Part shown: positions 3,349 through 59,856 of the stretch, one piece after another | Position numbering within the stretch: position 1 is the first letter of the stretch | Layout of the letters: each line of letters begins with the position of its first letter | From: Chrysochromulina tobinii | Lineage: Eukaryota | Assembly (NCBI GenBank): GCA_001275005.1 | Contig: JWZX01003346.1 | Coordinates: 1-59,856 of the forward strand | DNA length: 59,856 nucleotides | Direction: 5' to 3' | The notes under the pieces: model-generated | The model's input: only the letters and a program-made list of their open reading frames with translations | What the model was told of the DNA's origin: nothing | The model's database searches: none | Program-made: the position numbers and the translations under genes

Positions 3349-4168
3349 ATGGCCAATGGAGCAGCCATGGCCGCCGCGCGCGCGAAGAAGAAAAGGGAAA
3401 GGGCAGCTAGAGAGCACCAGCTTGACCAGGAGACGGACAGACTGTTTGAGAAGTATGACACAAGCAAGTCAGGGTTGATCGAGAAGGAGGAGCTGCGTGC
3501 GATGCTGATGGCCATCGAGCAGGAGAAGGGGCAACTAACTTTGGTGAGTGAAGCCGGTCTGGAAAAGCTGCTCGATCGCATGCTCAAGAATTACGGCGAG
3601 GAGGGTCCCGAGGGATTGGGTGTCAGCCGCGAGAATGCGCTGACTGCCATGAAGCGGTACCGAGCGTGGCTCAAGCACGAGGAGATGATCGAGCGGCTGT
3701 TCCGGCAAGCAGACGCCAACGACTCACGTACCCTCGAAAGGGGGGGAGAGATCAAGGTCTTTTTGACCCTGGTCGTCAATGAGTTCCCAGAGCTTCGTGG
3801 GATCACGGTCGAAGATTCCGACGTGGACTTCATCCTCGAGCGATGTGATGGGTTCAAGGATGGGGTGAAGAACGAGGTAATAGACATGGAGGAGGCGGGG
3901 CCTGCCGTGGCCACTTGGATCCAGGTGGTCCGAGCCAAGGTGCGCCCACCACGGCGCCTCAAGCCACGCCATCGCGGCACCTCCTCACACTGAACCGCTG
4001 CGCTCTGCGCGACTCGCCGGCCCTCACCGCCCTCACAACCCTCGCCGCCCCTCGCCTTCGCCTCAACCTCGCCGCCCCTCGCCTCTTCTGATCCTCTCGC
4101 GATCGAATCGCTCGCCGTCGCAGCCGCCAAAACCACAGACAACGACCGCCGCGTGCGTCGTCCTGTGA
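3349..4168 (+). CDS. EF-hand calcium-binding protein with C-terminal CaaX box; exons 3349-3939, 4124-4168
   Basis: EF-hand loops DTSKSGLIEKEE and DANDSRTLE. Intron 3940-4123 (gtgcgc...gtcgcag, pyrimidine-rich) gives a last exon PPKPQTTTAACVVL*. Confidence 0.8.
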
Positions 4169-4443
4169 ACACTTTGTGAACACTCTGTGAGCACGTCGTC
4201 GTTTGGGAGGCGCCGTAACGGGCGCGGTGGCGGTGCGGACTGGCGTGCGAGCTAGTGCGTGCGAATACAGGTGCGCGCGAGAGGTGCTGTGACACCGTGC
4301 GTAACCGTGCGTGGGCGTGGGCACACCTCTGAGGCGCACGCATGGGATACAAAATTGGTGGCGGCGGGGTACCAATGTTGTCTGGAGCGCTGCTACAGGT
4401 GGCTCGACACGCGCCGGTCCGATCAGACCACGGACGCGGCGTC

Positions 4444-4537
4444 CTCCGAGATGCTCTGAGAGATCGTACAACGTACCGAGATAACCTCCGAGATGCTCTG
4501 AGAGATCGTACACGGTACAGCGTACCGAGAGATCGTA
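4444..4537. repeat. Short intergenic direct repeats
   Basis: ctccgagatgctctgagagatcgtac x2, plus repeated cgtaccgaga. Confidence 0.8.
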
Positions 4538-4779
4538 CTGGCCCGTGACCGTTAGTTGCCGCATGCCGGCACGCGGCTGGGCTTGTCCGTGTGCCTCGTT
4601 GCCTGGGTAGAAGCGTACCCACAACCCAGGCGTCTAGGGGTAGCGGTCCAGTCCAAGGGCGGCACGTTCCGAACGTCACGTTGTTGCAGTAGGGTAGAGC
4701 GCCCACGTACACTTGTTGTCCTACCGTTAACGCGTCCGCGCGGTCGCTCTATCGCGTAAAGGCTAATGCGCTAATCGCT

Positions 4780-6348: not shown

Positions 6349-6534
6349 GTGGCGACCCACAGCGTCAAACACGTTGCTTGTGCAGTTCTGATGATATAAT
6401 TCGCCCGAGAGTAAACGAATCTTGCATGCATGTGCGAACAAAAGGCACTTGCAGGAGATCGTCTGCATCGGATTACGGAAAAGGCGCACCAAACCCTTTT
6501 TTTGCATGCATTGGAGGCCGCGACACATAGGAAT

Positions 6535-8793
6535 ATGGAGACTGAGCTGGCGAACCCGGCCATCCGCCGGCTGCCATTGCGCGAGGCCACGCTGGTGCGC
6601 TCGGCCTGTGCGCTGCCGTCGATCGCTGCGATTGCTGAGGAGCTCGTGCTCAACGCCCTCGATGCTGGCGCGAGTGAAGTGAGCGTCTCGGTCGACGTGC
6701 TCGGTTGCTACATCCAGGTCCGTGACAACGGCTGTGGCATCGACCTCGACGGGCTACGCATGATCGGCGACCGGCATGTGACCTCTAAGCTGGCCTCGCT
6801 TGCTGATCTCGATTCGGGTGAGGCATTTCGAACCTTTGGCTTTCGCGGAGAGGCGCTTCACATCCTTGGGACTGTCAGTGTGCTCGAGATCATCTCATGC
6901 GCAGCCGCGGCGCCATCCTCGACCCACGCCGCCGTGCTGCGTTTCGGTCTGCGGCAGTCCGTTGGCCCGGCACATGAGGTGCGAGCGGTGGGCACCACAG
7001 TCACGGCGAGAGATCTCTTCGCCAACCGATCCGTCTCGCGAAAGCAGCATCAGCGACCCGGGGCCGCGGCGGCCGAGGTGGAGCAGGCCCGCTCGCGCCT
7101 GATGGCGCTCGCCATCGCGCACCCGGCGGTGGCTCTCCGGCTGCACGACCTCGGGTGCAACCTCACCGTCTTGCGCACGTCCATCACCTCGTCGCCTCTC
7201 AGCAGCCTGCGCGCCAGCCTCGGCGAGCTCGAGCCCCCACCGATGGTGCCCTTGGCTTTCATGCACGCGGGCTTCTCGCTCGAAGGCTTCGCGGCCGTCC
7301 CGCCAGCCGGCCACCGCAGCCGCGAATGCCAGCACCTATTCCTCAACCAGCGGCCGCTCAGCCCACGCACCGAGCTTCACCAGCTTCTCGAAGCCGCCCT
7401 GACCAAGGTCGCCCTTGCACTCACCGCAGCGTCGGCTCCAACGGCCGGTGGCTCGGCGCAGGCGCCGACCAGCGTGCCGCATGCAGCCTTCGTCCTCTTC
7501 CTGCGCTGCCCACCCTCGTGCTTCGACTTGACGCTCGAGCCCGACAAGTCGGACGCGACCTTTATCGACGGCGGCCTGACCGCATCGCTCACACTCGTCC
7601 AGGCCATCACCCGCTTCGTGAGCATGCACTGCGAGCCTGCCCTCTCCACGCACGCTGCGTCGCGCCTGATCGAGGCATGCCTGCCCACGAGTAGCCGCCG
7701 AAGCGGCGGAGGGGGCGGCGCACGCAGCGGCTCCGCCTCCGCGACCGCGGGCACCAAGGGCACCAAGGGCAGCGGGACGGGCAGCCGCAGCAGCGGGGGC
7801 AGTCGCAGTGCGAGCGCGGCAACCGGCAGCAGCGAGGGGGGCGGGGCCGCAGGCAGCAGCGAGGCAGCGCGAATGCCACCGTCATCGCTCGCCTCGCAGC
7901 TCGGGCTCATGGCACCCCTGGCGCCCATCACGGCGCCTCTGAAGGCTCCCAAACGTCCGTTCGCGCCTCTCGCCACCATTGCGCCGCGCCAACGGCTCAA
8001 CACGGTACCGGTAGGAGAGGGATCCGAGTCCGCAAGGAGCGCGCTCGCCTTCGGAAGCATGTTCGACCCCCAGCTCCCGTGGGAAGCAGAGGCCGACACG
8101 CGCACTCAGGCTGGGCCTGCGAGCGCCCTTCCGGGCGCCCCGATGTCAGCCGCCGTCGTGAGCACCGCGCGCCTTGAACGGCTGATCGCTTTCGCTCAAC
8201 TCGAGCGAAAGTTCATCCTCGCGACCGCCGACCACGCCCTATACGCCATCGACCAGCACGCGGCGGATGAACGAGTGCAGTTGGAGGCCTTGCTACGGGC
8301 GACGGTGCAGCCGTGCGGCCGGCCCCTCGCTGGGAGTGTGGGGGAACGCGCGCTGCGACCTCCCGCTAGGCTCGTGCTCACTCCGCATGAGCACGCCACG
8401 CTGCGCCGCCACCGCGCGCGACTCGCCGAGTGGGGATGGCGGCTGCGAGAAGAAGGAATGGACGCGCGCACGCTCATGCTCGACGCCATGCCACAGCTTC
8501 AGTCTGTCGACTTGGGCGAAAGGGCGATGCTCGAGTACGCGCAGGCTCTCGAGGACACCGCGGGCGGCAGCACACTCGCGCCCCCGGCAGTGCTCCGCGT
8601 GTTAGCCTCCAAGGCGTGCCGGCGCGCCATCATGTTCGGCGATACCTTGAGCGTGACGCAGTGCCAGGCGCTGCTCGAGGAGCTCGCGCGCTGTGAACAG
8701 CCGTTGCAGTGCGCGCACGGCCGTCCGACGATCGCACCGCTCGTCGACTTGGCGGCGCTGCGCCTGCCCGAACGGATGGAGGGCGATTTGTGA
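6535..8793 (+). CDS. MLH3: MutL-family mismatch-repair/meiotic endonuclease MLH3
   Basis: GHKL ATPase motifs (EELVLNALDA, DNGCG, GFRGEAL), endonuclease motif DQHAADERVQLE, SKACRRAIMFGD and terminal QCAHGRPT. Confidence 0.9.
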   Translation: METELANPAIRRLPLREATLVRSACALPSIAAIAEELVLNALDAGASEVSVSVDVLGCYIQVRDNGCGIDLDGLRMIGDRHVTSKLASLADLDSGEAFRTFGFRGEALHILGTVSVLEIISCAAAAPSSTHAAVLRFGLRQSVGPAHEVRAVGTTVTARDLFANRSVSRKQHQRPGAAAAEVEQARSRLMALAIAHPAVALRLHDLGCNLTVLRTSITSSPLSSLRASLGELEPPPMVPLAFMHAGFSLEGFAAVPPAGHRSRECQHLFLNQRPLSPRTELHQLLEAALTKVALALTAASAPTAGGSAQAPTSVPHAAFVLFLRCPPSCFDLTLEPDKSDATFIDGGLTASLTLVQAITRFVSMHCEPALSTHAASRLIEACLPTSSRRSGGGGGARSGSASATAGTKGTKGSGTGSRSSGGSRSASAATGSSEGGGAAGSSEAARMPPSSLASQLGLMAPLAPITAPLKAPKRPFAPLATIAPRQRLNTVPVGEGSESARSALAFGSMFDPQLPWEAEADTRTQAGPASALPGAPMSAAVVSTARLERLIAFAQLERKFILATADHALYAIDQHAADERVQLEALLRATVQPCGRPLAGSVGERALRPPARLVLTPHEHATLRRHRARLAEWGWRLREEGMDARTLMLDAMPQLQSVDLGERAMLEYAQALEDTAGGSTLAPPAVLRVLASKACRRAIMFGDTLSVTQCQALLEELARCEQPLQCAHGRPTIAPLVDLAALRLPERMEGDL

Positions 8794-9094: not shown

Positions 9095-10336
9095 ATGCCC
9101 CAGCTGGCACCGTTGTCGTCACCATTACCTACTAGACCGCCACCGGCACCACCACCACCACGACCACCACCACCTCCAATGCCACCGCCGACCGCCTCAC
9201 AGCCTCAAGCTTCGGCTCCAACGAGAGCAACACCAGCAGCGAGGCGGCAAGAGAATCCCTTTCAGCCATCGCATCCATCGGTTAGGAAGCAGCGTGGCGG
9301 GGAAGAGGAGCCATTTCCTCCACGCGAGGGCTGGCGACGGCCACCGCTGCAGCCATCCGTCGCCGAGTCCCATCACTCTCCTCGAAGGCGACCGACCAGC
9401 CCAAAGCCGCATTGTGCGTTGCCACCCGCGCTCGCCTTGCGAGGATGCTTCCAGCCAGTCCGCGTGCGATCGCGAAGCACGCCGGCTTCGAGGAGCGGCG
9501 GCGATGACGCGCGCGGGAGTGGCCACGAGAGCCCACGAACTCGTTCGCCGAGGGCAACGCCAATGGCATTGACCAAGGGGCAACTGCAGCACAAACATGG
9601 CGGCAGCGCCGGCGTCGCCGTCGGTGGCACGAGTGGCAGCGCGGGCTTGGTGAGCCGCAGTCGCAACGGCCGCGATCGGCGTGAGCCTTACCACATGCAC
9701 ATGAGCCTGAGCGATGTTCATTTCCTCATTCGGGCCTCGGACCGCAGCGCCGCCGCCTACTTACGCACCGAGCGACGCTCGCCATGCGGCAACGATTGGC
9801 TCCTACCCCTAGAGATCTTGCTTGCGCGGCAGGCATGTGCACGGCGCGACGCGGACTTGGAAGCGGAGGCCCTGCGGCGCGAGCAAGAGGAAGCGGCCGC
9901 CCAGCGCGCCCGAGAACAGGCTACGCGCATCCTCGAGGCAACCCTCGAAGCGGTGCTTGTCGACGCCCTCAGTTCGAGTCTCGAAGAGTGGACGGCGCAG
10001 GTGGCGTACGACATATGGGTCGATCAGAAGGCGGGCTTGGCGAGCGAGGCCGCCCTTGACTTCCTGCTGTCGAGCGCCATGACCCACTGTGGTCTCATGC
10101 TCACCTTTGAGAGCGGGGGGGATGGCGGGCTCCTTGTCGCTTGGGTGGCAGAGGTGGATCGTGCTCTGCAGCGGGAGGCCTTCGAAGCATACGCCACGGC
10201 TGAGAGGGAGAAGAAGGAGAAGCTGCAACGTTTGCAGATCGAAGAGGAGGAGAAGGCGAAGAATCGCGCGGAGGCGATGGCGAAGAGCAAGGCGCTCAAA
10301 GGAGGTAGCATGCGCCAACTGACGAAAGAGTTGTAA
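9095..10336 (+). CDS. Hypothetical protein (Pro-rich N-terminus, coiled-coil C-terminus)
   Basis: Long ORF with a helical E/K/A-rich C-terminal part. No recognised family. Confidence 0.6.
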   Translation: MPQLAPLSSPLPTRPPPAPPPPRPPPPPMPPPTASQPQASAPTRATPAARRQENPFQPSHPSVRKQRGGEEEPFPPREGWRRPPLQPSVAESHHSPRRRPTSPKPHCALPPALALRGCFQPVRVRSRSTPASRSGGDDARGSGHESPRTRSPRATPMALTKGQLQHKHGGSAGVAVGGTSGSAGLVSRSRNGRDRREPYHMHMSLSDVHFLIRASDRSAAAYLRTERRSPCGNDWLLPLEILLARQACARRDADLEAEALRREQEEAAAQRAREQATRILEATLEAVLVDALSSSLEEWTAQVAYDIWVDQKAGLASEAALDFLLSSAMTHCGLMLTFESGGDGGLLVAWVAEVDRALQREAFEAYATAEREKKEKLQRLQIEEEEKAKNRAEAMAKSKALKGGSMRQLTKEL

Positions 10337-17028: not shown

Positions 17029-19169
17029 ATGTCGAAGTCGTACTTGATGGCAGCGTCCACTCGCGCAGCCGACGCTGACGCTGCTGGAGGTCACTCTGCG
17101 CCGGCCGCGGTGCGCTTTGAGGGCGACGCGGATGGCGCTCTTGCGCGCGCATATGAGTGTGACGGCCAGTCCAAGGCCATGGAGATGAAGTACCCCATGC
17201 ATTGCATGAAGATGTCTGACTTCTTGCAACTCACTATGCTGGAGGCGCACAACGGCCTGGTCGAGCGCGGGCTCGTGGTGCCGCTCAACTTCGACGGTAA
17301 GCATGCAGGCGTGGAAATCCAGTTTGTGTCTCATCAGTGGTTGGGCTACACAGTCGCCGATCCCAACGGCGATCACCTCACGACGATGCAGGCCGCCTTC
17401 CGGATCGCTATCGACGAAGGCAAAGGGCTCTTCAAGAGTCATGAAGACTGGAAAGCTTATGCCGAGGGTATGACAACTACCAACGCGACATCCACAAGTT
17501 TGGTTCAAACGCGGAGAGTGCGTCTCTCGGCACTGGCTCCTCGGCCTGTGAGGCGGGAGCCAGTCCAGAGATGGACGTGGAGAGGCGCCTTGCCCTCAGA
17601 CACGAGACCTTCAAAGCCAACGTAGCGGACAGTTGGGTTTGGATGGACTTTCTGTCTGTGCCGCAGACTGTGGGCCTCTCGGATGTCGCGGCTGTCCAAG
17701 AGGCCATCAGCAAGCAGGCGGATGCCATTCGCTCCATCCCTTCTTACATCCGCCACGCCACCACCTTCTGGATCTGCACGCCGCAGGGCGCCAAGCACGA
17801 GAGCGGCGAGCTGTGCTCGTATGCCACGTGGAGCGCTCGCGGGTGGTGCCGGCTCGAGGAGACCACTATCGCGCTGCTCAACTTGGCGACGCACGCCCGA
17901 CCTATCATGCTCACCGACCCAGTAGGCGCTCGGCCGTTGGCGGTGACCCCGGACAGCGTCGACCGGATGTCAGTCCACGTGCAGCGGCGCAATTCGGTGC
18001 TCACAGGCGCCTTCTCGTGCTGCCGGTTGAAGCACCAGGTGCAAACGCTCAACGGTAACTTCGCACCGATCCCGTGCGACAAGATCATCCTGCGCAAGGT
18101 GCTTGCGGAGGTCTACGTAGAGGGCTTGAGCATCGCGCGCGACCTATGGCAGCGCGACAAGGAGCACGACACACGCGACATAGAAGGGATGGGCACGTTC
18201 TGGTCGAGCATGATGGCCGGCATCACTGGGCAAGATCCGAGTTTTGCGCTCTGGTACTTCCATAGGAGCCTGCGGCAAGCGTATTTCGCCGAGGGCGTCG
18301 ACGAGCCTGACTTTGTGGCGTTGGGCTGGTCGAAGCCGTTCGAGGAGCTCACGGCGGAGGATTGCGAGCACTACTGTGCGCGCTGGGGGATGAAGTGGCG
18401 GCCTGACCACTCTGTGGAGAAGGCGGCGGGATGCTATTGGCCTGCGCAGGTGATTGCATGCTGATTGCAGGTTGATTGCAGGCTGATTGCAGGCTGATTG
18501 CATGATTATTGCATTCTGATTGCAGTTTGATTGCATACTGAGTGCGTGCTGATTGCATGCTGATCGCAGGTGATTGCATGCTGATTGAAGGTTGATTGCA
18601 TGCTGATTGAATGCTGATTGCATGCTGATTGCATGTGGCAGGAGGGCAACTTGCCCATGCTGCGCTACTTTGTGGAGGTGCTCGGAATGGACCCAATGAT
18701 GGCTAATGTGATCGGTGTCTCGACACTGCACTGCGCGGCGCGCCATGGCTTCAACAAGATCATATGTTACCTCGTGGCGAAGGCGGGTGAGCGTGTGGGT
18801 CATGGCACGCCTGAGCTGCGCGCGTGGCTCAATCAGCGCACGAATAGCCTGAAGCTTTCGCCCATCGACGGAGCTGCTGTGTGCGGCCACCCGAGTACCA
18901 TCAAGTTGCTCGCTTCGCTCGGCGCTGATATCCACGCGCGCCGCTCCAACGGTCGTACGCCGCTGCACTCGGCAGCCGCGTATGGGCACGCGGCCTGTGT
19001 GGGTGAGCTGCTAGCGCTCGGCGCGGATCCCGAAGCGCAGGCAGACGACGGTAGCAAGCCTGCCGACCTCGTGACACACTCGTGCTCTCTCTCTGCATGG
19101 CCGACGACACAACATGACGAGTGTCTCGAGCTCCTCGACGCAGCCGTAAGGGAGAAGAAGAAGGCATGA
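17029..19169 (+). CDS. HET (heterokaryon-incompatibility)-like domain plus C-terminal ankyrin repeats
   Basis: HET-like motifs FVSHQWLG, WVWMDFLSVPQ, IPSYIRHA and WSARGWCRLEE, then ankyrin repeats (STLHCAARHG, TPLHSAAAYGH). Intron 18450-18641 joins the domains in frame. A frame change near 17470-17570 is either a further intron (e.g. 17468-17568) or an indel. Confidence 0.7.
18450..18641 (+). repeat. Intron composed almost entirely of ~11-nt TGATTGCATGC repeats
   Basis: gtgattgcatgctgattgcagg...gcatgtggcag. Phase-0 removal joins PAQ|EGNLPM. Confidence 0.85.
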
Positions 19170-20370: not shown

Positions 20371-23049
20371 ATGGCGGCCGCCGCTCCAAACGAGCCGAAC
20401 CTGATCAGAGTGGACGGAGCACCGCCGGGAGGGCCGTCGGCAGCTCTACCTCGCTCTCCTGATGCCGCAGCCGTCGCGCGAAAGCTCAAGCAGGCGATCG
20501 TGCAGTTCATGCATGGCGATTCCGACGAGCGCCTCGTGGCTGCCAGGGCGCTGTACGACACGGCGGGCGTGAGCATCGTCATGTGCAGGCAGCTGCTACA
20601 GGAAGCGGGCGCGGCGCTCGTCGCGGGGCTCGACGAGCAGCTGACCAACGACAAGGCGTTCGTGCTCGTCGTGCTGCTCACGCTCAAGCGGATCGCCGGC
20701 CACCTGACGATGGAGGTGAACGATCTGAGAGTCGCGCCGCCGCTGGTCGCGCTGTTGCGGTCGTCCACAGCGTCACTCCGGCGCCACGCCGCCGCCTTGA
20801 TCGAGCTGCTCTGCGCCGAGGACGAGGCGGCCAAAAGCTTGCTCAACGCGGGCGTCGCTCCCGTGCTCTTGCGGCTCGCCCTCGGCGAGCGTGGTGATGG
20901 CGACGACGGTGGCGGCGGTGACGACGCCGGTAGCGGCGGGCAGGGCGGAGACGCCGATCGCAGCGGCGGCCACGGCCGCCGCCGCCGTGGCTGCAGCAGC
21001 GACGACGGCGCAGGCATCAGCAGCGGTGCCGCCGTGTTATGCGCATGCACGGTGCTATGCCGCCTAGCTGAAGACCGAGACACGCGCTATCAAGTTTCGA
21101 CTGCCTTTGTCGAGCACACGGGCCTCGTGCTCGCGCTCGTGGCGCCTCTCGAGTACGATGCGCCCGCGGAGGCCAAGCAAGCGCAGCAGCAGGTGCTCCG
21201 CGCCATCGCCGCCCTCGGGGTGATAGGAGAGTTCAAATCGTCCCTCGCGGCAGAGGGCAACTTCATAGGCCTGCTGTTCCAGCTGCGTGACTCGGCGATC
21301 GCGGGCGTGCCGGCGCTCGCGCACGCGATCGCGGCACACTGGGATGACGACTTCCTCGGATGGGCCTGGCAGACGTGCGCCTCGTGCAAGCAGGTGCGCA
21401 GGATGGCCACTCTGAGGGCTGACGAAGCTCTGAGGGCTGACGAAGGGCGCTCTTCTTCTCTTAATAGCCTCTCTCTCCTCTCCCCCGCTCCTCATCCTCC
21501 CTCCACCCTCCTCCCCCACCCCGCGCAGGTGGCCGCCGAGCTGATGCTCGACCCCGAGACGCCCATCGGGCCCGCCGACGCCTCGGGCGGCGTCGAGCGC
21601 TACACCGTACAGCTCTTCACGGCCCATCGGATCCTGAGGGAGTTCCTCAAGCAGGCACGTTGATTGCCACTGATGGCCTGCCGTGCATGCAAGTGCTCAC
21701 CACAGCGCTATCGGCTCCCCGTCTGCCAATTGGAAGGCGATTGCGACTGATGACCTACAGTGCATGCACGCGCTCACCACGACGCTCCTCTCTTCCTCAA
21801 ACAGGCCGATGAGGTGACGCATGGCTTGCTGCGCCTGCAGGCACAGCTCGATGAGGGCGTGGCCCTCACCGAGAGGTACGCCGGCGTGCTTCGTCAGCGC
21901 TTCGTCATCGGCTCCGACCCGTCGGACGCGCCGGCAGACCCCGACGCGCCGCTTTCCGCTCCACGCGCCTTCGAGGTGCACAACCGACAGCTGGCGCGCC
22001 AGCTCGGAGACCCGCGGCCCTCGGCATGCAAGTGCTCACTACGGCGCACCCTCGCGTCTCCCCACAGGTGCACAACCGACAGCTGGCGCGCCAGCTCGAG
22101 GCCTCCGCGCAGCAGGTGCGCACAAGCTACCGGCAGCTTCTGCTGCACTGCAGCCTGCTCCTCGACGGCGAGCGGACCGTGCAGCGGGCCGAGGGACACC
22201 TTCGCGAGCTCGACGAGCTCGTTCGCGCAGGGAAGGCGGTCGAAGTGACGTTCCTGTGGAAGCAGCAAGCACACGTCGCGCTGCGCCGGGCGCTCATCGG
22301 CCTTTCGCTTCGTCTTGAGCTCCATGTGCGTGCCCTTCTCGCCCAACGCGAGGGCTCCGGCTCGATGCTCGGGCTCGCGGAGCAGGTGCGTCTCGTCAAT
22401 TTCCTCTGATTGCCTCTGATGGCCTCTGATTGCCTCTGATTGCCACTCTCGATCGTATGGTGGAGCAGGTGCGTCTCGTTCATGGCCTCTTGATTGCCTC
22501 TGCTGATGGCCTCTGCTGATGGCCTCTTCTTGCACGCGATCTTGACCCTCCGGGTCGCGGAGCAGGTGCTCGAGGGGCTTCCGCTGCTTCGGAAGGAGGC
22601 GACGGCACTCGAGGGGATCGCCGACGCCGCCGACCGTCTCAAGAGGCGAGGCCTGGGCGAGGGCGGGGCGGGCATGGAGGGGGAAGCGGCCATCCCTGCC
22701 CCCTCCCCCTCCCCCTCCGCCTCCGCCTCCGCCGCCTCCCTTTCGTTTGCGTCCCGCTCCCGACCGGCGCGTACGCTCACCGGCGTGGCGCACGCAGCCA
22801 GCGCCTCCTCGTTCACAGTCTCGAAGCGCCCCCCGCGCCGTGCCGCCTCCGCATCGCGCCTACTCCACCCAGGCCGCCTCGGTGGTAGCCTCAGTGGTAG
22901 CCTCGGCGGCTGCAGTGGCGGCTGCAGTGGCGGCGTGGCCAAATCGCCGAGCGGCGCGACCGCGAGCGCCGACGCAGCCGCGGCGGGAGCAGCGGCGGCA
23001 GGAGTAGATGCGGCGGCAGGAGCGGCGGCAGCAAGCGCGAAAGGCAGCA

Positions 23050-23086
<37 letters not shown>

Positions 23087-25738
23087 GAGCGGCGGCGGCG
23101 GCGGCGGCGGCGGGAGCTGGCCATCCAGTGGGGGCTACCTGAATCCGATCTCGGGCTCCGAGATCATGCCCAAGACGACGCCGATCTCGGGCTCCGAGAT
23201 CATGCCCAAGACGACGCCGATCTCGGGCTCCGAGATCATGCCCAAGACGACGTCCCCCCGCCATGCCCCCGCGTGGCTCAGCTTGAGTCTGAGCCACCCA
23301 AGCCTCGGTCGTCCACTCACACCCTCGGTGCTCACCTACCGGTCGTTGCCGGCGCGTGAGCAAGCGGAGGTCGCGAGCGAGACGCGACTCGCCCTCGCCA
23401 TGGCAGCGCGGCGCCACGGCTCTGCCAACGTCCTACTCACGGCGCGGTCGGCTGCGGCCGACCGACCGAGCGCCGTACCGAGCGAGGCGGCGCTGCTCCC
23501 CGAGCGCCGTACCGAGCGCACCGACGGCGGCGCGAGTGGCGGCGAGGGCGAGGAGGCCGAGGGCGGTGGCGCTCGGTACGGCGCTGACGGCGAGCTTGGC
23601 GACGACGAGGGCGGTGGCGCTCGGCACGGCGCTCACGTGCGCTTCGAGTCCGACGAGACGAAACCATCGATGACGAAACCATCGATGACGAACCCATCGA
23701 TGACGAAACCATCGATGACGAACCCATCGATGACGAAACCATCGATGACGAAACCATCGATGGCACCACGGCCGTCCCAGGCACCAGCACCGCCGACGAC
23801 GCCCGGTCGACCCTACTCCGCGGGCCTGCTGCGAGCGCCCAACACGGCGCTGTCGAGCGGCCGCCCCACCTCGGCCGCGAGCACGCCCAACACGACGCTC
23901 GGTCGACCCGGCTCGGCCACGTCCACGCGCGCGAGCCTCGCGGGCGTCGTGCTGGGCGCGGGCACGGAGCCGCCGAGCTTCGCGAGCAAGCAGAGGCTCG
24001 CCACGCCCTTCCTCGCGTCCGACCCGCATGAGCGCCGTCGACGACGCCAGATGAGCGCCCCTGGCGAGACTGAGCTGCGTGAGCTCGTGACGAACCCTTC
24101 CAAGCTCGGAGGTCGCGCGAGATTTCTTCGGCTGCAGCAGATCTTCGAGGGCATCGACGAGGACTCGTCGGGCGCGATCTCGCAGCGCGAGCTGCGCACC
24201 TTTCTCGACCGCGCGGGCCTCGAGGTCACCGATCGAGAGCTCACCTCTGATTGCCTCTTGATTACCTCTGATTGCCTCTGATGACCGATGATTGCCTCCC
24301 TCATCAGGTCTCCGATCGGGAGCTCACCTCATGGATCGACAACTCGGCATTCGACAATAACGGCGAGGTCGAGTTTGTCGAGTTCATCGAGGTCATCAAC
24401 ATGCTCAGCCGGCGCGCGCGTGCGTACGAGCGCGAGAAGGCGGTGCGCGAGTACGGCGGCGGCGGTGCGAGCCCGAATGGTGCCGAGCAGTCTCGACAGC
24501 AGGCGGCGGGGGCTGCAGGGCGTGAAGACGCCGACGCCGACGCTGACACCGACGGGGAGGGGGGGGCCGACGACGCCCCCTCCCCGCCTCCCGCCGCCGC
24601 CGCTCGGGCTGGCGATCTCGAGGAGCTCGAGATCGAGACGGTCCTCAATGAGTCCCGCCGCAGCGCCGCGCCGCCGCCGCGCTGTGCCGCGATGGAGAGC
24701 ACGCGCCGCAAGGCGGCTCTCTTGTCTTATTACCTGCCCACGACGCCCTTCCAGCCTATGGGCATCGTCCGCAGCGCCGCGCCGCCGCCTTTGCTCACGG
24801 CGGACGCGCGGGCGGACTCGGCGCACTTCCAGCCTGCCGATGCGGATGACCGGCCAGCGATTCAGATGCACCGGTCGGAGCTCGCTGATCTGTTCCCACA
24901 GGCGGCGCACTACGCCACCGCCCTCGTCATTCACAGCTTCGTCGAGCCCACGGCAGCTGGGGCGACCGGCGGCAAGGCGGGCGGAAAGGGCGGCGACGAC
25001 AGCACGTCCGACGGCGTCCCTCTCATCACCCTATTGCAGCTACAGGCTTGGTCTCGCCTGACCGGCTTCCCCGACCTCTCGCCCCTCTCGGGGCCCCAAT
25101 GGCTGACCGTCCTCCTGCGCCGGATGAGCGTGGTCCCGGGCACCGCCCTCGTACTTGGCCCTGACGGCGCACCCATGCTCACGGGCGTGCGCTGCGCGGC
25201 GCCCGCGGCACGTCTGCCCCCCCTCGCTGGCTGGGATGCGCTACAGCTATTAGCGTGGTTTCGGTGTGCCCGGCTGCTCGATCTGCCCGAGGCATCGCCG
25301 CGCACGCTCGCCCGACTTCCCCTCGATCAGCTGTGGCCGACGCTTGGCAACTGCGTCAGCCAGACGCGCTCGCTCATCGTCGCCAACGGCGGCCGGCTCC
25401 AGCCGCCACCCGCGCCATCAGCGGCGGCCGCGGCCGTGGCGCTCAAGGCGGCGCTCGCTGGGGGAGATCTCGCTGGGGGAGATGGCGAGGCCGGCGTGCC
25501 GTCCGTGGCGCGTGCCGCTGCGCCCGCGACGGCGCCCGGCGCTCGCGCAGCCTCGCGCTACGACCAGGGCGCCCGCGTCGAAGGCTCGGTGCTCCTCGAG
25601 CCTCCGCCGCCGCCACCGCCTTCGCATTTGGTCGCTGCCAAGCTCGCAGGCGCGCGCCACCGGGCGGTCATCAACGCCGCGCCTACGTCTCGCTTGCGGG
25701 CGCGCAACAGCCACATGCTGCGGCGCATCGACTCGTGA
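20371..25738 (+). CDS. Large ARM-repeat/low-complexity/EF-hand protein; exons 20371-21393, 21529-21654, 21805-21975, 22068-22385, 22566-24224, 24308-25738
   Basis: Five phase-0 introns (one GC-AG) chain five ORFs. ARM-like helices lie at the N-terminus. The EF-hand pair DEDSSGAISQRE and DNNGEVEFVEF is joined across the last intron. Confidence 0.7.
21655..21804 (+). mobile_element. GC-AG intron made of two tandem family-A units
   Basis: Units 21655-21736 and 21737-21804 each carry gattgc.actgatg.cct...tgcatgca.g.gctcaccac. The intron end ttcctcaaacag|gc copies the upstream exon end ttcctcaagcag|gc. Confidence 0.75.
21976..22067 (+). mobile_element. Introner-like intron (family A), 92 nt, with perfect 33-nt duplication
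   Basis: aggtgcacaaccgacagctggcgcgccagctcg occurs at 21974-22006 and 22066-22098. Core gcatgcaagtgctcactacggcgc. Confidence 0.85.
22386..22565 (+). mobile_element. Intron made of two tandem TGATTGCCTC-filler units (family B)
   Basis: An internal ggagcag|gtgcgtctcgt at 22462-22479 repeats the donor context. The intron end gggtcgcggagcag|gtgc copies the upstream exon gggctcgcggagcag|gtgc. Confidence 0.75.
23145..23252 (+). repeat. Coding tandem repeat, 36 nt x3 (PISGSEIMPKTT), each unit with an 8-bp hairpin
   Basis: ccgatctcgggctccgagatcatgcccaagacgacg; gatctcgg pairs with ccgagatc. Confidence 0.9.
23657..23761 (+). repeat. Coding tandem repeat, 15 nt x7 (TKPSM)
   Basis: gacgaa(a/c)ccatcgat units. 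Confidence 0.9.
24225..24307 (+). mobile_element. Introner-like intron (family B), 83 nt, with 25-nt duplication (2 mismatches)
   Basis: aggtcaccgatcgagagctcacctc versus aggtctccgatcgggagctcacctc flank a tgattgcctc filler. The intron splits an EF-hand pair. Confidence 0.8.
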
Positions 25739-42465: not shown

Positions 42466-45164
42466 TCATGGGTGCCAGGCGTCGCCGGCGCCGCGGAGGC
42501 CGTACTTGAGGCGTAATGCAAGCGACTGCATCAGGCTATCGAAGGCGTCCGGCGCGTGCGCGAGGATAAGCCTCACCTCAAGGGGAAGTGCTTCGCGCCA
42601 CAAGAGGCGCGTCCACACCGCGGCGAGGGCATGCCGCTTGGACATCAGGGCTGTCGTGTTGGCGGCCAGACGGCGCAGGATCATGGGCAGCTGTGGCAGG
42701 TCGCGAGGCTCGAGACGCACGGCGATGGCGTCCCAGTCGAGTAGAAGCCCTTCAAAGGCCTGCAGCACGGGAGGGTAGGCCGAGGCCTCGTCCCGCTGGA
42801 TGAGCACTGGAATGCACCCGAGGGCTGCGCTGTGGAACACGCGCATGCCCCAGCCGGTGCCACTCGGGCACAAGCAGAAGATGGTCTGGAGCATCTCGGC
42901 GTCGAGAGAGACGTACGGCGGAGGCGGCTTGAGGTCCGTCGCACGCAGCTGGAAGCCCTCCTCCTTGTGGAATCGGCGGTAGACCTCCCAGCGCACCCCG
43001 AAGGAGTAGTGGTCGAGGAAGCCGTGCTTCTGACGGCACTTGCGCCCGAGCTCGGCAAGACCGTTCATGTGATCGTAAGTCTGCCAGCAGATGGCGCCGT
43101 GGAAGAAGAGGAGCTTGGTGCGCCCGTGCCATGCCTTGTGGTTCGCGTCGGCGGCGGCGGCGCGCGCGGCGGCGGCTGGGTCGGTGGGGAATTGTCGGTG
43201 GAAGGTGAGGAAGGGCGACTTGGCGACAATGTGGTCGCGCAGCACGCCTGGAATGACGAGGTCGCGCGTGGCGTCGAAGCAACGCTCCGTCGGCACGCCT
43301 CCGAGCCCCGTGACGGCACCCCAATTGCTCAGAAGGATCGAGGCGCGCGTCTGGTCCCAGATCGATCCCCAGGGGTTCGAGCACCCCGCCGCGTCGCGCG
43401 TGTTCGACCAGATGTGATCCGCGCCGCCCGACCTGTTGAAGTATGGCCACACGCTGCGCACATATTGGTGCGCACGCCAGTAGACCTCCGGATTGCCCCA
43501 CGAGCCATGGAAATCCCACACGGGCACGTAGTAAAAGTCCGCACGCGAGGGATCCGTCGTTCGGTGCGCCGAGCGGAGCAGCGAGATGTGCACCGCTTTG
43601 AAGCCCCGATAGTCGGCTGGCCCGTGTGAATAGAAGGCCCATGTCGGCTCGGCCTTGAGTGCCAGGACGTTCATGCGGGCGGGCAGCTCATACACGTACA
43701 CGCACGGGCGCACGCATGTGCCCGCGGCAGCGCCCATGCTAGCAGCGCCGGCGCCGCCTTCAATGCCCGCCTGTGAATGCCCTCGTGTGAATTCGGCGCC
43801 GCCTTCAATGCCGCCGCCGCCTTCCTCGCTGGCTCCGCCGCCGCCGCTGCCTCGTGACGTGAGGCTTGAGGGGATGGTGGGTGGCGCGGCAATTCCCAGG
43901 TGGCCAGCGGGCAGCGCATGCAACGCCTCCGTGCTCGCCCTGAACGGCTCCAGCGAACAGTCGACCCCGTAATAGGGCGGTCGACAGAGGCAAAAGCCAA
44001 AGTCGCACCGGCCGCGGTTGAGGCAATCTGAGACACAAAACCATCTGGGATGCCTCTCGCACGCTGCACCAAAGTAGCCTGGGATGCACTGGCACGTGCC
44101 ACCCTGGCACACACCCCGCCCATTGCACCGGTCGGGGCATTGGTCCAGCGGCGAACCGACGCAATCAATGGTCGCGCCGCTGCCATCGCCTCGGGTCGGA
44201 TGGCGCTCACCTGATCAAGGAGGCCATCAGAGGTCATCCGAGGCTATACGAGGCAATCCGAGGCAAACAGAGGGCTCGGATGGCACGCACCCCTCGAGTG
44301 CTCGCACACAGGCTTGTCACAAAAGAAGGCGGACGAGTCGTTATAGACGCACCAGCCGTGATGGGTCTGCGGGCGTGCGAGCGCAGGCTGCACGTGCAAT
44401 TCGCATTGGGGACCCCATCGGTGGCGTGGACAGTCGCAACGACCCAAATCGGGCAGGCACACGCCCTCGTTTGCGACGCACTCGCGCGGGCACTGTTGGC
44501 GGCCCCAATGCCACGCATTGCCGGTGAGCACTGGGATGATGCGTGTGGCGCCGCCCATGGCGCGCGGCGGCATCGCCACCACCGGCGAGTCGCGCTCATC
44601 CCATCCTGACTGCTGCATGATGGCCAGAAGCTCAGCGTCGCGCTTGGACATGCCGCTCGCGTACCCGACCTTGTTGCCGTGGGCGACAATGGCGACGCCC
44701 CATGAGTCACGCACGTCCGCCGAGGCATCCGGACGATTTGCCGGGTGCGCCGCCATGTACGCGAGGTGCAGCGCGTATGCGGACGGCAGCGGTGAAAGCG
44801 GCTTGAGAGGGCCAACGTCAATGGCCCGAGCTGCACTCGTTGCCACAGCGCCAGCGGCGGCACTGGCGGCGCCCTCGACGATGGTAGCGCTCGTGTTCGT
44901 CGTCGGTTCTTCACGGTTGCGCGCACGCGCTTTTCTCTGCCGCCGCCGCCGCCGCCGTTGCTTCTCCGCCAAGAACCTGTCCTCGAGGTCGATCTTGCAA
45001 GTAGGGCCCGGGCACTGCTGTAGGGCCCGGGCGTGGCGCGCGAGCCGCACGGGCTCTACAGCAACGTGCGGCGGCGGCGCGGGGGACGCGGTGCGGGAGA
45101 ACAAGAGCCCCGCCGCAATCGCGCCGAGAGCGAAGCACAGCAATGTGCTCCTTGCTGAGGACAT
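42466..45164 (-). CDS. Exostosin-family (GT47) glycosyltransferase with EGF-like repeats; exons 45164-44291, 44210-42466
   Basis: N-terminal TM, EGF-like CxCxxGYFGxxC, VYVYELP, RTTDPSRADFYYVP and FCLCPSGTGWG.RVFHSAALGCIPV. Confidence 0.9.
44211..44290 (-). mobile_element. Introner-like intron (family B), 80 nt
   Basis: On the minus strand the start gtgcgtgccatccga resembles the next exon gtgagcgccatccga. Filler ggattgcctc...gatgacctctgatggcctc, ending gatcag. Confidence 0.7.
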
Positions 45165-48595: not shown

Positions 48596-50812
48596 TCAAG
48601 TGCGCAGCAATGAGCCCCCATCTGGCTCCATGCCGGCCCGAATCTCCTCCAGACGGCGGCGCTGTCGCCCCTCGCTGTCGAAGTTGGCCGGCGAGAGCCA
48701 CGCCGAGAGCGCCGCGCCCACTCGAGGCCACTCGGCGTCAAGGATCGAGAACCACGCCGTGTCACGGTTGCGCTGTCGGACGACTGTGGCTTGGCGCGTC
48801 ACGCCTTCGAAGACGAAGCCAAGGCGCAGGGCGGCTGCGCGTGAGCGCACGTGGCGCGCGTTGCACTTCCACTCAACGCGCCGGTAGCCGTTGCTAAAGC
48901 TCCACTGGAGCATGAGGAAGAGCGCCTCGGTCGCGGGCGGCGTGCGAGCCAGTTGCGGCCCGAAGCTCAGATGGCCTATCTCAAGACATCCATGCGCGGC
49001 GGCGATGCGGAGGAAGGCGGCGAGGCCGAGGGCGACGCCGTTCACTTCGAGCGCGAAGAAGAGCGGGTCGGCGCTCGTCGTCTGTGGACCGAGCCATGCG
49101 CCGAGCGCCGCCGGCGAGTCGAACGGACCGTACGAGAGGAATGTCCAGTGCACGTCGCCCGCGCCGGCATAGGCGGCGTGGAGTGCGCTCGCGTGCTCCA
49201 AAGCAAGCGGCACGCATGCCACACAGGCGCCGCGTAGCGTCAGTCGGACCGGCGACGGCGGCGGCTTCCAGTCGGAAGCCAGTTGAGGCCCGATGGGTAT
49301 GCTGACGGCAGGCAGGCCGATGGGCATGCTAACGGCAGCAGAGTCGTGCACTTGCCACACGGGGGCCTGCCAGTTGGTACGCGGAGGCGTCGCGCTCAGC
49401 AGCGGAGCCGTCATGCCGCTCAGGCTGGTCTTCTGTCTGTTGAAGAGTGTGGCGGCCTCGGCAGGCGCCGTTACGGGCGCGCTCGATAATCCCACGCCTT
49501 CACCCACGCCTTTACCAAAGCTTTCACCGATGCCTCCGGCCACGATGCCAAAGTTGCTCGGATCGAGCCATGCACAATAGCAGCGCTCGATGGCGGGCCA
49601 CTCCGGGCGCGTGATGGAGAACACTGCCTGATCGCTCGTGCGACCCTTTAGGACGAACCGTTGGCGGAAGGTGACTTCATACGTAAAGCCGAGTCGCTGC
49701 GCAGCCCGCATGGCGGGCTCATTGTGAGGATCGCACGACCATTCGACACGACGGTAGCCGCACGCGAATGCCTCGCGGATCTGGAGGATCATCGCCTCGG
49801 TGCCCGCGGCGGCGCCTGCAATCCTCGGCGAGATCATGATCTCCGCAATCTCCGCGGTGCCTCCCTCTGGAGCGACGCTTATCAGCGCGCCAAGACCCGC
49901 CGCGGTGCCACTCGCAAGGTCGACGTACCTGATGACGGGGGCACTCAGATAGCATGAGGTGCAATCAGAGGCGATCAATGGCCCGTCGCTCGCAAGGTCG
50001 ACTTACACGCCGAAGTAGGCGCCCGTGCCGGCCTCGAGGCTCGCGAGGTACGCCCACAGCGCCTCGCGACTTGAGAAGCCGCTCTGGAAACTGTACGCCC
50101 AACGGCTGTGGCTTGGATCGTCTTGGAAGGCTGCAAAGAGCTCATCGCAATGCCTGTCTGCCTCGAGAGGCTCGACGCGCACGAATCGGCCGACGTGTGT
50201 CGCGCGGTGCAGCCGCTTTGGTGGCGCCCACAGCGCGTCCGACGCTGCGGTGCACAGGGTGGGCAGGTATTCATCGAGCACCTGGTGGCCGCCATGAGGC
50301 ACGGCGTGCAGGACCACATCCGCCATGCCGTCCACGTACAGCTGCGAGAGCCCGAAGCTCCTGACAGGGTCGTCGCGCGCCCAAAAGAGCACTGCCGGCA
50401 GCCGCGCGATCCTGGCGATCAAAGAAGTGTCCGTGAGCGACGGCGCAACCAGCACCAGCATGCGCACCATCATCGGGTGAGCGGCAGCAAATGCCACGGC
50501 CTCACCGCCGCCCCATGACTTGCCCATGATGACTGCGCTTGTGGCACCCGCATGCTTGTAGATGCCCAGGAGTAGCTTCTCCGTGTCCACGCTTGCCATG
50601 AAGCCGGGCTTCGTGGCGGCATTCGAGTGCAGGTTAGGCAGCAGCACGCGCAGACCCACTGTGGCCAACTCACGGGCAGCTGGCTCCCACTCTGTGATGA
50701 CGTCTAGGTTGGCGCTCTTGCCCTGTATGCACAGGACGAGAGGCGCCCCGGCGCAGCCAAAGTCTAGCGCGTCCACGGGACCGAGGTGCGTCGCGAGCTG
50801 CACGGCCGCCAT
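48596..50812 (-). CDS. Alpha/beta-hydrolase fused to two RimJ/RimL-type GNAT acetyltransferase domains; exons 50812-50007, 49928-48596
   Basis: Triad GKSWGG, DD and GGH. Two GNAT repeats (GYRRVEWSCDPHNEPA and GYRRVEWKCNARH...RNRDTAWFSILDAEW). Phase-2 intron 50006-49929 joins the ORFs within the first GNAT. Confidence 0.8.
49929..50006 (-). mobile_element. Introner-like intron (family B), 78 nt, with 18-nt duplication (1 mismatch)
   Basis: Intron start gtaagtcgaccttgcgag versus exon start gtacgtcgaccttgcgag. Filler tgatcgcctctgattgcacctc, ending catcag. Confidence 0.8.
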
Positions 50813-54471: not shown

Positions 54472-55104
54472 AACGATGACTTCTGGCAGGAAATGGCAGC
54501 TCGCGTCTCTGACGCCTCCGAGCTACTCTTAGCGCGCCAAGAGCCAGTGCAGCCACTTGCCAAAAAAAGCCGTGCGCTGCCGCCGCTTCAGCCGTCCTCA
54601 TCGCCGCCGGCACGCGCCTCGGCAGGCACCTCGGCCCCGCCACTGGCTCACTACCGCGCGTCGCAGCCGCCGACCCTCGGCTCTCAGCCCATCGGAGCGC
54701 TGACGCTGCGAGCGGCGCCGCCGGCACGCGCCTCGGCAGGCACCTCGGCCCCGCCACTGGCTCACTACCGCGCGTCGCAGCCGCCGACCCTCGGCTCTCA
54801 GCCCATCGGAGCGCTGACGCTGCGAGCGGCGCCCGCGTCCGAGGAGGACTGGCAGCTGTCGGACGAGGCGCTGGCAAGCTTGCCAGACGTGGTGCCAATA
54901 ACCTCTCAGCCCATCGGAGCGCTGACGCTGCGAGCGGCGCCCGCGTCCGAGGAGGACTGGCAGCTGTCGGACGAGGCGCTGGCAAGCTTGCCAGACGTGG
55001 TGCCAATAACCGCCGCGCCACCTCCGCTCGGTACGGCGCCCAACAACGAAGATGATTGGCTTTTCTGGCATCTGCCTGTCGAGGCGCTGGCAAGCTCGCC
55101 ATGA
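53368..55104 (+). CDS. DEDDh 3'-5' exonuclease-like protein with Cys-rich N-terminus and repetitive acidic tail; probable intron 53835-53903
   Basis: ExoI-like STDVET, ExoII-like IVHHGGTE and ExoIII-like HTAAGDA. In-frame gtgcgt...ggcag intron. ED repeat and internal duplications. Confidence 0.6.
54602..55011 (+). repeat. Two overlapping coding tandem duplications (114 nt x2 and 108 nt x2)
   Basis: Near-perfect copies starting at 54602/54716 and at 54795/54903. Confidence 0.95.
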
Positions 55105-55367
55105 TGCGAGAGGCGCGCCGATCGGACGGCCAGAGAAAGCTCGAGGAAGACGAGGCAGAGAGCGGAGCGGAGCAAAGCGGGTAGGGACTCGCTCGCCATG
55201 ATGCGAGAGGCGCGCCGATCGGACGGCCAGAGAAAGCTCGAGGAAGACGAGGCAGAGAGCGGAGCGGAGCAAAGCGGGTAGGGACTCGGGAGGCGGGCCG
55301 GATCAGATCTGTCCTCTGTCCTCTGTCCTATGTCCTCTGTCCTCTGTCCTCTGTCCTCTGTCCTCTG
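55094..55367 (+). repeat. 97-nt tandem duplication spanning the stop codon, followed by (TCTGTCC)n
   Basis: Copies at 55094 and 55191. About 8 heptamers at 55308-55367. Confidence 0.95.
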
Positions 55368-58200: not shown

Positions 58201-58411
58201 ACGCGCGCACCGGGCAGCCAGCGAGCGAGCCCGCCGCTGCCATGAGAGTCGGCGTGCCAGCGGCGAGACCGCGTCTGCGTCCGGTCCGCCGGCCCCCCAA
58301 ACCACCCGTTCTCCTCACCTGTGCGTGTCAACACTGTATAGAATCAACCCATGCAATTTTCGTTGAATACTTAGATTATCATCACAGTGTGGGGGCTCGT
58401 CAGCATGGCGC

Positions 58412-59856
58412 TCAGCCGCACTCGTCAAGGAAGACGAGCTGGTCGACGAGAGGCCAGAGGCGCAGCTTCGACTCGCCCAGGATGCTGAGCAGCTCGGAGC
58501 GCATGCGCTCGTCACAGCGCTCGTCGTCGTCCTCGCCCTCGGCCTCCACGCCCTCTTCGTCGCGCCGTCGCAGGTACGCATACACACGCTCAAACGTGGC
58601 GACGCCCAACTCCCGCCGGCAAGCTTCACGCAGAGCGGCGGCCCTCTCGGCTCCGGCAAGGCCGTGAGGCTCAGCGACGTCGTGGGCGTCGGCGTGGGCG
58701 TCGGGGCCGTCGCCGCCCTCGCCGTTGTAGTAGTCATAGTCGGGGCCTTCGTACGCATCGTCGCCCTCGTACTCCTCGTACTCATCGTACCCTGCCGCCG
58801 CCTCACCGTACCCTTTGACGTCCCCTACGATAGCGAGCTGCGGCGCGGCCGGCAGCCACGCGGCATCGTCGGTCAGGGCACGAAGGGTGCCACCTGGTAC
58901 TACGCGCTGCGCCGCGAGTGCCACTCCGAGCGCCGTGTCGAGCGCGGAGAGCTGCGCGTCGTCGAGGGTACCCGAATGGTACTCGTACAGCGCCGTGTCG
59001 AGCGCGCTCTCGAGCAGCGCGTCGGCGTCGGCGGCGGCGGCGGCGTCAGCGTGGTCCCCGATGCTGCCGCTGCCGCTGCCGCCGCTGCCGGCCGAGCTCA
59101 TGTACCTTGACGGAGGGAGAGTCAAGCGCGCCATGGTGAGCACTTGCATGCAAGGCAGGTCATCAGTGTGGCAATCAACGTACCTTGACGGAGGGAGAGT
59201 CTCGCGCGCCATGGTGAGCACTTGCATGCAAGGCAGGTCATCAGTGTGGCAATCAACGTACCTTGACGGAGGGAGAGTCTCGCGCAGCGTGCTCAGCACG
59301 ACGCTCGACACGACAGGCTCGCAAGCAATGAAGCCCTCCACCGCCGCAGCGGCTTTGCCAGCAGTGCCGGCGGAGGCGGCGGGCGGGGGGCGTCGCTTCG
59401 AGTGGCTCGTAGCGACCAGGGTGGCGCGGAGGAGCTGAATGTTGAGCTCACACGCCCCAAGCGTCTCCTCGCACTCCTCGAGCTGCCGCTCAACCTCGGC
59501 ATCTAAAGAAGGCCGCGGAAGGAGCGCTGTGCTGAGCGCTGTGCTGAGCGCTGTGCTGGAGGCATGTTGCACGGCGGCGAGCTCGCGCGCGAATTCGTCA
59601 ATCCCCATCGGCGGCGGCGGCGGCAGCACGTCGGCGCCGTCGAGGCCCTCGGTACCGTCGGCGGTGGCGGCGAGAGGTTCCGCTGACTTGTCGCGGGCGG
59701 GCGTGATGGGCGGAGATTCGTCACGGAGGGCAGCGAGGGTATGGCTGAGGAGCTCGTCCGCGCTCTTCGACTTGAGGCGCTCCTCGAGCGACTCCTCGGA
59801 CGAGAGGGACGCATGCAGCGCGACGGCGTCGTAGTATGCAGCCTCCTCCGCCAGCA
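58412..59856 (-). CDS. 3' part of a protein with a NEK1/NEK11-like C-terminal helical domain (5' end outside window)
   Basis: LREACRRELGVATFERVYAYLR...LLSILGESKLRLWPLVDQLVFLD resembles the C-terminus of NIMA-related kinases. The kinase domain is not seen. Confidence 0.55.
   Translation of the reverse strand, partial: LAEEAAYYDAVALHASLSSEESLEERLKSKSADELLSHTLAALRDESPPITPARDKSAEPLAATADGTEGLDGADVLPPPPPMGIDEFARELAAVQHASSTALSTALSTALLPRPSLDAEVERQLEECEETLGACELNIQLLRATLVATSHSKRRPPPAASAGTAGKAAAAVEGFIACEPVVSSVVLSTLRETLPPSRYVDCHTDDLPCMQVLTMARETLPPSRYVDCHTDDLPCMQVLTMARLTLPPSRYMSSAGSGGSGSGSIGDHADAAAAADADALLESALDTALYEYHSGTLDDAQLSALDTALGVALAAQRVVPGGTLRALTDDAAWLPAAPQLAIVGDVKGYGEAAAGYDEYEEYEGDDAYEGPDYDYYNGEGGDGPDAHADAHDVAEPHGLAGAERAAALREACRRELGVATFERVYAYLRRRDEEGVEAEGEDDDERCDERMRSELLSILGESKLRLWPLVDQLVFLDECG
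59106..59261 (-). mobile_element. Tandem dimer of a 78-nt family-A intron unit
   Basis: Minus strand: 2 x gtacgttgattgccacactgatgacctgccttgcatgcaagtgctcaccatggcgc plus a copy of the upstream exon end gactctccctccgtcaag. Confidence 0.8.

Follow-up and report, generated by a model that had tools for sequence, protein, structure and literature searches.

The window analysed here is the whole 59,856-nt stretch of Chrysochromulina tobinii contig JWZX01003346.1, and all positions refer to it. Near its end, a gene on the minus strand comprises an upstream exon (59262..59856), whose frame is open to the window end and which is covered by RNA contigs, and a downstream, last coding exon (58412..59105), which begins with GTAC, runs to a stop codon and is likewise represented among the RNA contigs. 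Between the two exons, an intron at 59106-59261 on the same strand consists of two head-to-tail 78-nt units, unit 1 at 59184..59261 and unit 2 at 59106..59183. Each unit starts with the donor GTACGT, continues through a core of ~50 nt that both units share and then through a copy of the upstream exon, and ends in AAG, and the first four intron bases, GTAC, are also the start of the downstream exon (59105-59102). Tandem Repeats Finder reported a repeat at 59102-59285 with a period of 78, 2.4 copies, 98% matches and a score of 354, bearing out, together with the sequence, the near-identical 78-nt units running from GTACGT to AAG that the initial annotation had described. The same annotation had called the dimer perfect and had set its span at 59106..59289; the tandem dimer holds, but the units are identical at 76 of 78 bases, and 59262-59289 belongs to the copied exon end outside the intron. 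At the two differing positions (59125-59124), unit 1 and the exon carry GA versus TT in unit 2. The last 24 nt of the upstream exon (59262..59285, minus strand) are copied at 24 of 24 positions in unit 1 and 22 of 24 in unit 2, and a looser likeness of the exon end to the core extends to ~59298.

Like spliceosomal introns in general, both units have GT...AG ends and a branch-point-like box. The predicted box, CTCAC, lies at 59214..59218 in unit 1, with its A at 59215, 31 nt from the unit end, and at 59136..59140 in unit 2, with its A at 59137, on the minus strand in each case; it is constant in the intron family described below and occurs seven times in the window but in none of 20 base-shuffled versions of it. 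A perfect 12-nt palindrome occupies 59221..59232 in the core of unit 1, with its counterpart at 59143-59154 in unit 2. The boundary between the units (59184/59183) reads AG|GT (59182..59185, minus strand) and is preceded by a predicted branch point and a pyrimidine tract; as had been claimed, it has the form of a zero-length exon. Both units are open in one frame, so the earlier statement that they are stop-free multiples of three stands, though each encodes 26 residues and not the 19 quoted. A stwintron was considered and rejected, the units being head-to-tail and each complete, with neither interrupting a splice signal of the other.

No Pfam family matched the host protein, and no longer homologue was found. 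The gene has one cluster of relatives, the Atlas matches are all under 0.9, and the C-terminal part of the protein is 56% identical to P0001 and presumably resembles NEK-kinase tails. P0001, which is possibly transcript-derived, aligns on both sides of the intron, and its LPP.RY motif is unbroken where the intron sits, which is compatible with intron gain. One protein of the window clusters with a Chrysochromulina parva protein at 90% identity. Elsewhere, the window carries a MutL-family mismatch-repair gene at 6415-8793 (+) and genes for DGAT, exostosin GT47, band 7, GNAT and DUF1295 proteins.

Evidence from RNA consisted of contigs assembled from three of six RNA runs (X11, X12 and X13), and RNA and DNA possibly came from different clones. 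A contig of 286 letters from X11 was placed over 214 letters on 59258-59471 and continued for 72 letters, and one of 205 letters from X12 was placed over 114 letters and continued for 91; the 30-letter consensus of the continuations equals 59072-59101, a string unique in the window. Two of the three runs hence join 59258 to 59101 over the common GTAC, all 156 nt being absent, at contig depths of 5.6 and 4.6, and this exon-joining end was not seen in the DNA run X10. The contig from X13 ends at 59272, short of the junction, and is neutral for splicing. The stretch 59106-59261 is an intron removed whole from mRNA with exact joining of the exons, as the initial annotation had supposed in calling it an intron, and the two contigs lacking both units run counter to constant retention of the units in mRNA. 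None of the 10 placed RNA contigs retained a unit at this locus, at a depth of ~5 and with contigs dropping rare forms; because of that low depth and that loss, the RNA reports the main product only.

The same annotation had suggested that zero, one or two units could be kept as peptide, which regulated in-frame alternative splicing would turn into a functional 26-residue insert. All four isoforms are open, with 480, 454, 454 and 428 codons within the window, but the RNA contains the fully spliced form only, the homologue P0001 lacks the insert, and just six of the 40 listed family sites that were compared are open and in frame if retained; we regard a functional insert as very unlikely. Because so few of these sites stay open, the open frame through the units looks like chance. 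A second, older dimer of the family lies at 21655-21804 (+), with units of 82 and 68 nt and an internal AAG|GC, and its half-splicing gives a stop codon.

The stretch was present in 16 of the 20 runs listed. In the DNA run X5, possibly the source run of the window, a 69-letter contig shared by the starts of the two units had a depth of 95.4, against 49.8 for the contig spanning the junction between units 1 and 2 and depths of 46.4 and 38.1 for the flanks. Since the common part has double depth and the junction single-copy depth, the two units are real. In X10, both flanks also continue into the core. The core is highly repetitive, with 31-letter core contigs at depths of 4000-4550 versus 68-84 for flanks, which is the setting in which a single unit might be read twice by the assembler; against such an artefact, which we consider extremely improbable, stand the two bases at which the units differ, the contig depths, and the agreement with the window of two other assemblies (L080 and L115) at 721 of 721 bases. 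There are exactly two units in the DNA, and reads of a single unit, the outcome that had been named as contrary to the dimer, were not what the depths fit.

The intron belongs to a large family. The exact core pattern gave at least 121 matching stretches in 120 loci covering 907 kb, partly redundant, and a looser version of the box gave 276 matches in 212 arrays, representing at least 103 distinct sites among the listed loci. These listed sites comprise 79 single, 19 double, four triple and one fourfold forms, that is, multimers at 24 of 103 sites, one of the triples (L001) including a small exon; the dimer is a common form in this family. The occurrence of many similar introns at at least 103 unrelated sites agrees with what defines introners. 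Within the window, seven boxes lie at five sites in 60 kb, and scaling this one window to the 59-Mb genome size of C. tobinii suggests, very roughly, thousands of copies. The family would be present in the published assemblies of C. tobinii and C. parva.

The anatomy of the family is a constant core adjoining a variable copy (2-42 nt) of the flanking exon of each site. Sequence after the box matched the upstream flank of its own site with a score of at least 12 at 77 of 102 listed sites, versus 1.6% of mismatched pairs. The element's own 5' end was present in 40 of the 53 listed full-core sites and lacking in the other 13, and all 40 follow AG, which was not used as a filter; several copies among the 102 listed sites join at other bases. 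Across the 40 sites, the duplication measures 2-35 nt (median 13), and monomers are 67-97 nt long (32 listed monomers). At 30 of the 40 listed sites, no more than one base is common to donor and downstream exon, which makes the donor part of the element; with the position after AG at 40 of 40, this upholds the earlier view that the element supplies the donor and the exon copy the acceptor. In the mirror type, found at 35 of 102 listed sites, six of them also full-core, 8-42 nt of the downstream exon are copied. Once the intron is taken out, the frame is open at 39 of 40 listed sites versus 13 of 40 unspliced, though with joins shifted the same holds at 31 and 30 of 40, and the test has little power against shifted joins. 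A TIR DNA-transposon introner was rejected as a candidate, given that the duplications (2-35 and 8-42 nt) are not fixed and the right ends vary by site.

Three further introns of the window, at 428-494, 21976-22067 and ~820-917 (+), are of the mirror type, the intron 5' part being a copy of the downstream exon and the acceptor coming from the element; the mirror arrangement had been claimed for the sites at 428 and 21976, correctly. The window also holds insertions of a TGATTG type rich in short repeats, at 22386-22565 (+), 18445-18640 (+), 24243-24310 (+), 44220-44273 and 49911-50002. Several of them have flanking duplications and possibly form a related family, and that at 22386-22565 resembles a dimer of 83 and 97 nt with an internal CAG|GT.

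Considering these results, we regard the 156-nt intron, absent from the RNA of the gene, as two 78-nt copies of a repeated Chrysochromulina intron, probably a single copied-in intron that was doubled by slippage between exon end and tail. A parent intron would have been copied into an AAG|GTAC site, with short matches between its ends and the target priming the process and ~22-28 nt of the target being duplicated, the element providing donor and branch point and the duplicate the acceptor. The tail of this copy may then have mispaired with the exon end so that the unit was recopied, leaving a unit 1 composed of the unit 2 core and an exon-type tail; a single slippage at a common GCGC, aided by the looser upstream likeness (34 of 46 bases), would give unit 1. 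The core variant of both units occurs in three of 92 listed contexts, all of them this locus or its allele L075, and a variant so specific to the locus argues against two separate insertions. The tail of unit 1 equals the exon at both positions where unit 2 differs, and the TT of unit 2 resembles the tails of family members L112 and L093 and is retained in L075. Unit 1 is likely the younger, slippage-made unit. The internal AG|GT would be a by-product of the duplication and not a selected device.

Comparison among assemblies yielded no empty allele of this intron site. Copy number varies between assemblies at two other sites (L008/L077 and L039/L092), a variation that short-read collapse could explain, and the apparent difference at L046/L087 was discarded as a contig end. 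L075 is 97% identical to window 58311-59188 and contains unit 2 and the downstream exon next to an unrelated upstream flank; it was rejected as a clean monomer allele because this flank is unrelated and out of frame, and is likely a chimera through the common core or a sister site. The end of that flank resembles the sequence of the present target. The downstream exon of L075 begins with GTACGT, where the window has A as its fifth base, so that in this allele the spliced exon junction would again read as a complete donor. In three alleles of one site (L044, L074 and L084), the shares of parent-type sequence and local exon copy in the tail differ, as if tails were rewritten in place. Perfect tandem duplications of 114, 108, 97, 44 and 36 nt without the core occur at 54602-55011, 55094-55288, 1574-1660 and 23145-23252, and short stretches are duplicated often in this genome.

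Removal of unit 1 first, of unit 2 first, or of both in one step would all yield identical mRNA, and half-spliced forms at this locus stay in frame. Because each unit has a full signal set and the normal length of the family, two-step removal probably occurs at some level, judging from the sequence, and there is about an even chance that it is the main route. The opposing view, that the 156 nt always leave as a single lariat from donor 1 through branch point 2 to acceptor 2 and that the internal AG|GT is silent, is a tentative possibility. It agrees with conventional lariats being favoured over recursive ones in the account of human introns below 1 kb (PMC10156609), and with the other multimers of the family: by our own count, AG|GY occurs 22-35 nt after the box in 13 of the 24 listed multimers and is absent in 11. 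Furthermore, L050 (~9915-10078) and the minus-strand trimer L029 repeat whole units without an internal donor (AG|AC and AG|GG), so that an internal branch box and AG would apparently have to be skipped in a single step. Since in both the last acceptor alone keeps the frame, this alga can likely remove such introns in one step. No intermediates appeared among the RNA contigs, which could not reveal them, an exon joined to unit 2 reading as pre-mRNA over the contig word length. Against exclusive one-step removal stands the completeness of each unit as an intron of normal length, and folding is predicted to leave the first signal set at least as exposed as the second (branch box unpaired 0.39 versus 0.28). 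The idea that RNA structure hides the inner junction found no support, the dimer fold being no better than shuffles (z -0.53). Zero-length exons are documented in a 336-nt intron of S. pombe (bioRxiv 10.1101/226894).

The tails of family members start with sequence that is absent from the local exon and common to unrelated sites. Whether a tail goes with a kind of target was assessed at the 27 of 40 listed sites that qualified, the tail boundary being set by our own script. Sites whose tails begin alike (18 pairs) have 4.7 exon-end bases in common, against 2.9 for 333 other pairs (p = 0.0004 by permutation), a signal that comes mostly from two site groups, with nine of the 18 pairs sharing at most three bases. 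The strongest case of target-likeness is one tail type found at GAGCAG exon ends (L005, L011, L013, L028, L039, L043, L078 and L116). Tails that predict the exon end of the target point to homology-primed copying, and the family likely spreads in this way into look-alike sites. A broken or nicked target would anneal to a parent intron by short matches, copy it and return to its own template, so that the stretch between is duplicated, and the tails would pass from parent to daughter. DNA is the template that we favour for this copying, at about even odds.

Intron RNA could instead be reverse-transcribed at a staggered nick, target-primed in a SINE-like manner, with 5' truncation and variable duplications. 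The variable duplication lengths, truncated left ends and priming matches of the family fit such a process, as target-primed reverse transcription accommodates all three, but the copies are without a poly(A) or simple-repeat tail, their right ends are truncated too, and Rfam gave no match above chance, the only four matches (E 0.5-0.9) all lying in a GC repeat outside the intron; we consider an RNA template fairly unlikely. Movement by an HUH transposase, as a non-autonomous Replitron- or Helitron-like element with its left end after AG, a fuzzy right end and variable duplication, seems quite unlikely as well. Replitron-1 is described as inserting after RG with a variable stretch of parental flank and variable duplications that include RG (PMC10288648), and C. 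tobinii is reported to have one Replitron protein. The family shares the fuzzy right end and variable duplication of Replitron-1, as reflected in its common non-local tails, and the position of 40 of 40 listed sites after AG, the inherited tails and the palindrome near the right end speak for such a transposase. However, inspection of the 40 listed sites found no exact direct terminal repeat at the core ends, an exon copy takes the place of the left half in mirror-type members (35 of 102 listed sites), several copies join at other bases, and selection for clean splicing alone favours AG.

Introns can be gained by tandem duplication of an exon stretch containing AGGT. As in that process, duplicated exon sequence here gives a splice site, but a common foreign core between the copies brings the branch point. 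Introners of marine Chrysochromulina metagenome-assembled genomes, described as having an element-borne donor and an acceptor from a 4-bp duplication (Gozashti 2022, PMC9860276, Fig. 2C), are likewise repeated short introns with their own donor and an acceptor from target duplication, and belong to the same genus. Compared by description, the present family differs from them in duplications of 2-42 nt instead of 4 bp, on either or both sides of AG|G, and in inherited tails and frequent arrays. C. tobinii and C. parva appear in the input table of PMC9860276 and are absent from the other supplement sheets examined, and a screen for introners from 2025 lists zero families for C. tobinii (PMC12130899, file 7). 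Introner-like elements of Polarella glacialis, for which fixed duplications of 3-8 nt per class are described, including a class 14 with both splice sites from AGGH (bioRxiv 10.1101/2020.10.14.339549), resemble the family in duplication-derived splice sites and several registers. Unlike these elements, which are described without tails or arrays in the portion of that report considered, a single family here has variable duplications, inherited tails and arrays.

Replitron-1 and Replitron-N1 of Chlamydomonas reinhardtii are transposase-bearing elements of 0.9-3.6 kb whose direct terminal repeat measures 6 bp, and the account of them considered here does not describe them as introns (PMC10288648). 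The family and Replitron-1 have in common a left end after RG, a parent-derived right stretch, a variable duplication including RG and a palindrome near the right end; in contrast to Replitron-1, the core here is of ~50 nt, is without a direct terminal repeat and often has its left end replaced. The sister stwintrons of Hypoxylaceae, reported as nested, spliced in an obligatory order and bearing inverted repeats without duplications, with central loss by microhomology (PMC8469720), are similar as repeated two-intron units, whereas the present dimer is head-to-tail and order-free. As in recursive splicing of S. pombe and human (10.1101/226894, PMC10156609), an acceptor abuts a donor within a fully removed intron; recursion in those systems was demonstrated by spliceosome and lariat data, whereas the site considered here is known from sequence, with segments of 78 nt and an origin in a young duplication. 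A literature search, which covered few subscription papers, found no paper that treats this family or zero-length exons produced by tandem introner arrays.

The origin of new spliceosomal introns and that of recursive splice sites are both open questions. The single locus alone carries little functional weight. The family would represent intron gain in which the duplications are long, variable and tied to homology, in contrast to the fixed footprints of 3-8 nt described in the introner papers considered, and seems to have escaped a published introner screen. It also offers matched monomers and multimers with (13 of 24 listed) and without (11 of 24) an internal AG|GY, and because one core is common to all forms, the family suits a comparison of recursive with one-step removal on very short introns. 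In the broadest picture, which we put forward with some doubt, an undescribed kind of intron may number in the thousands in freshwater Chrysochromulina. Such introns would select target sites that resemble their own ends, acquire part of the host exon and transmit that part to daughter copies, and would grow and shrink in situ, with about one-eighth of the sites becoming chains of 70-90-nt introns with zero-length exons and stepwise removal. If true, the family would still be generating recursive splice sites today and would reveal a mechanism of intron gain that is invisible to current introner screens.
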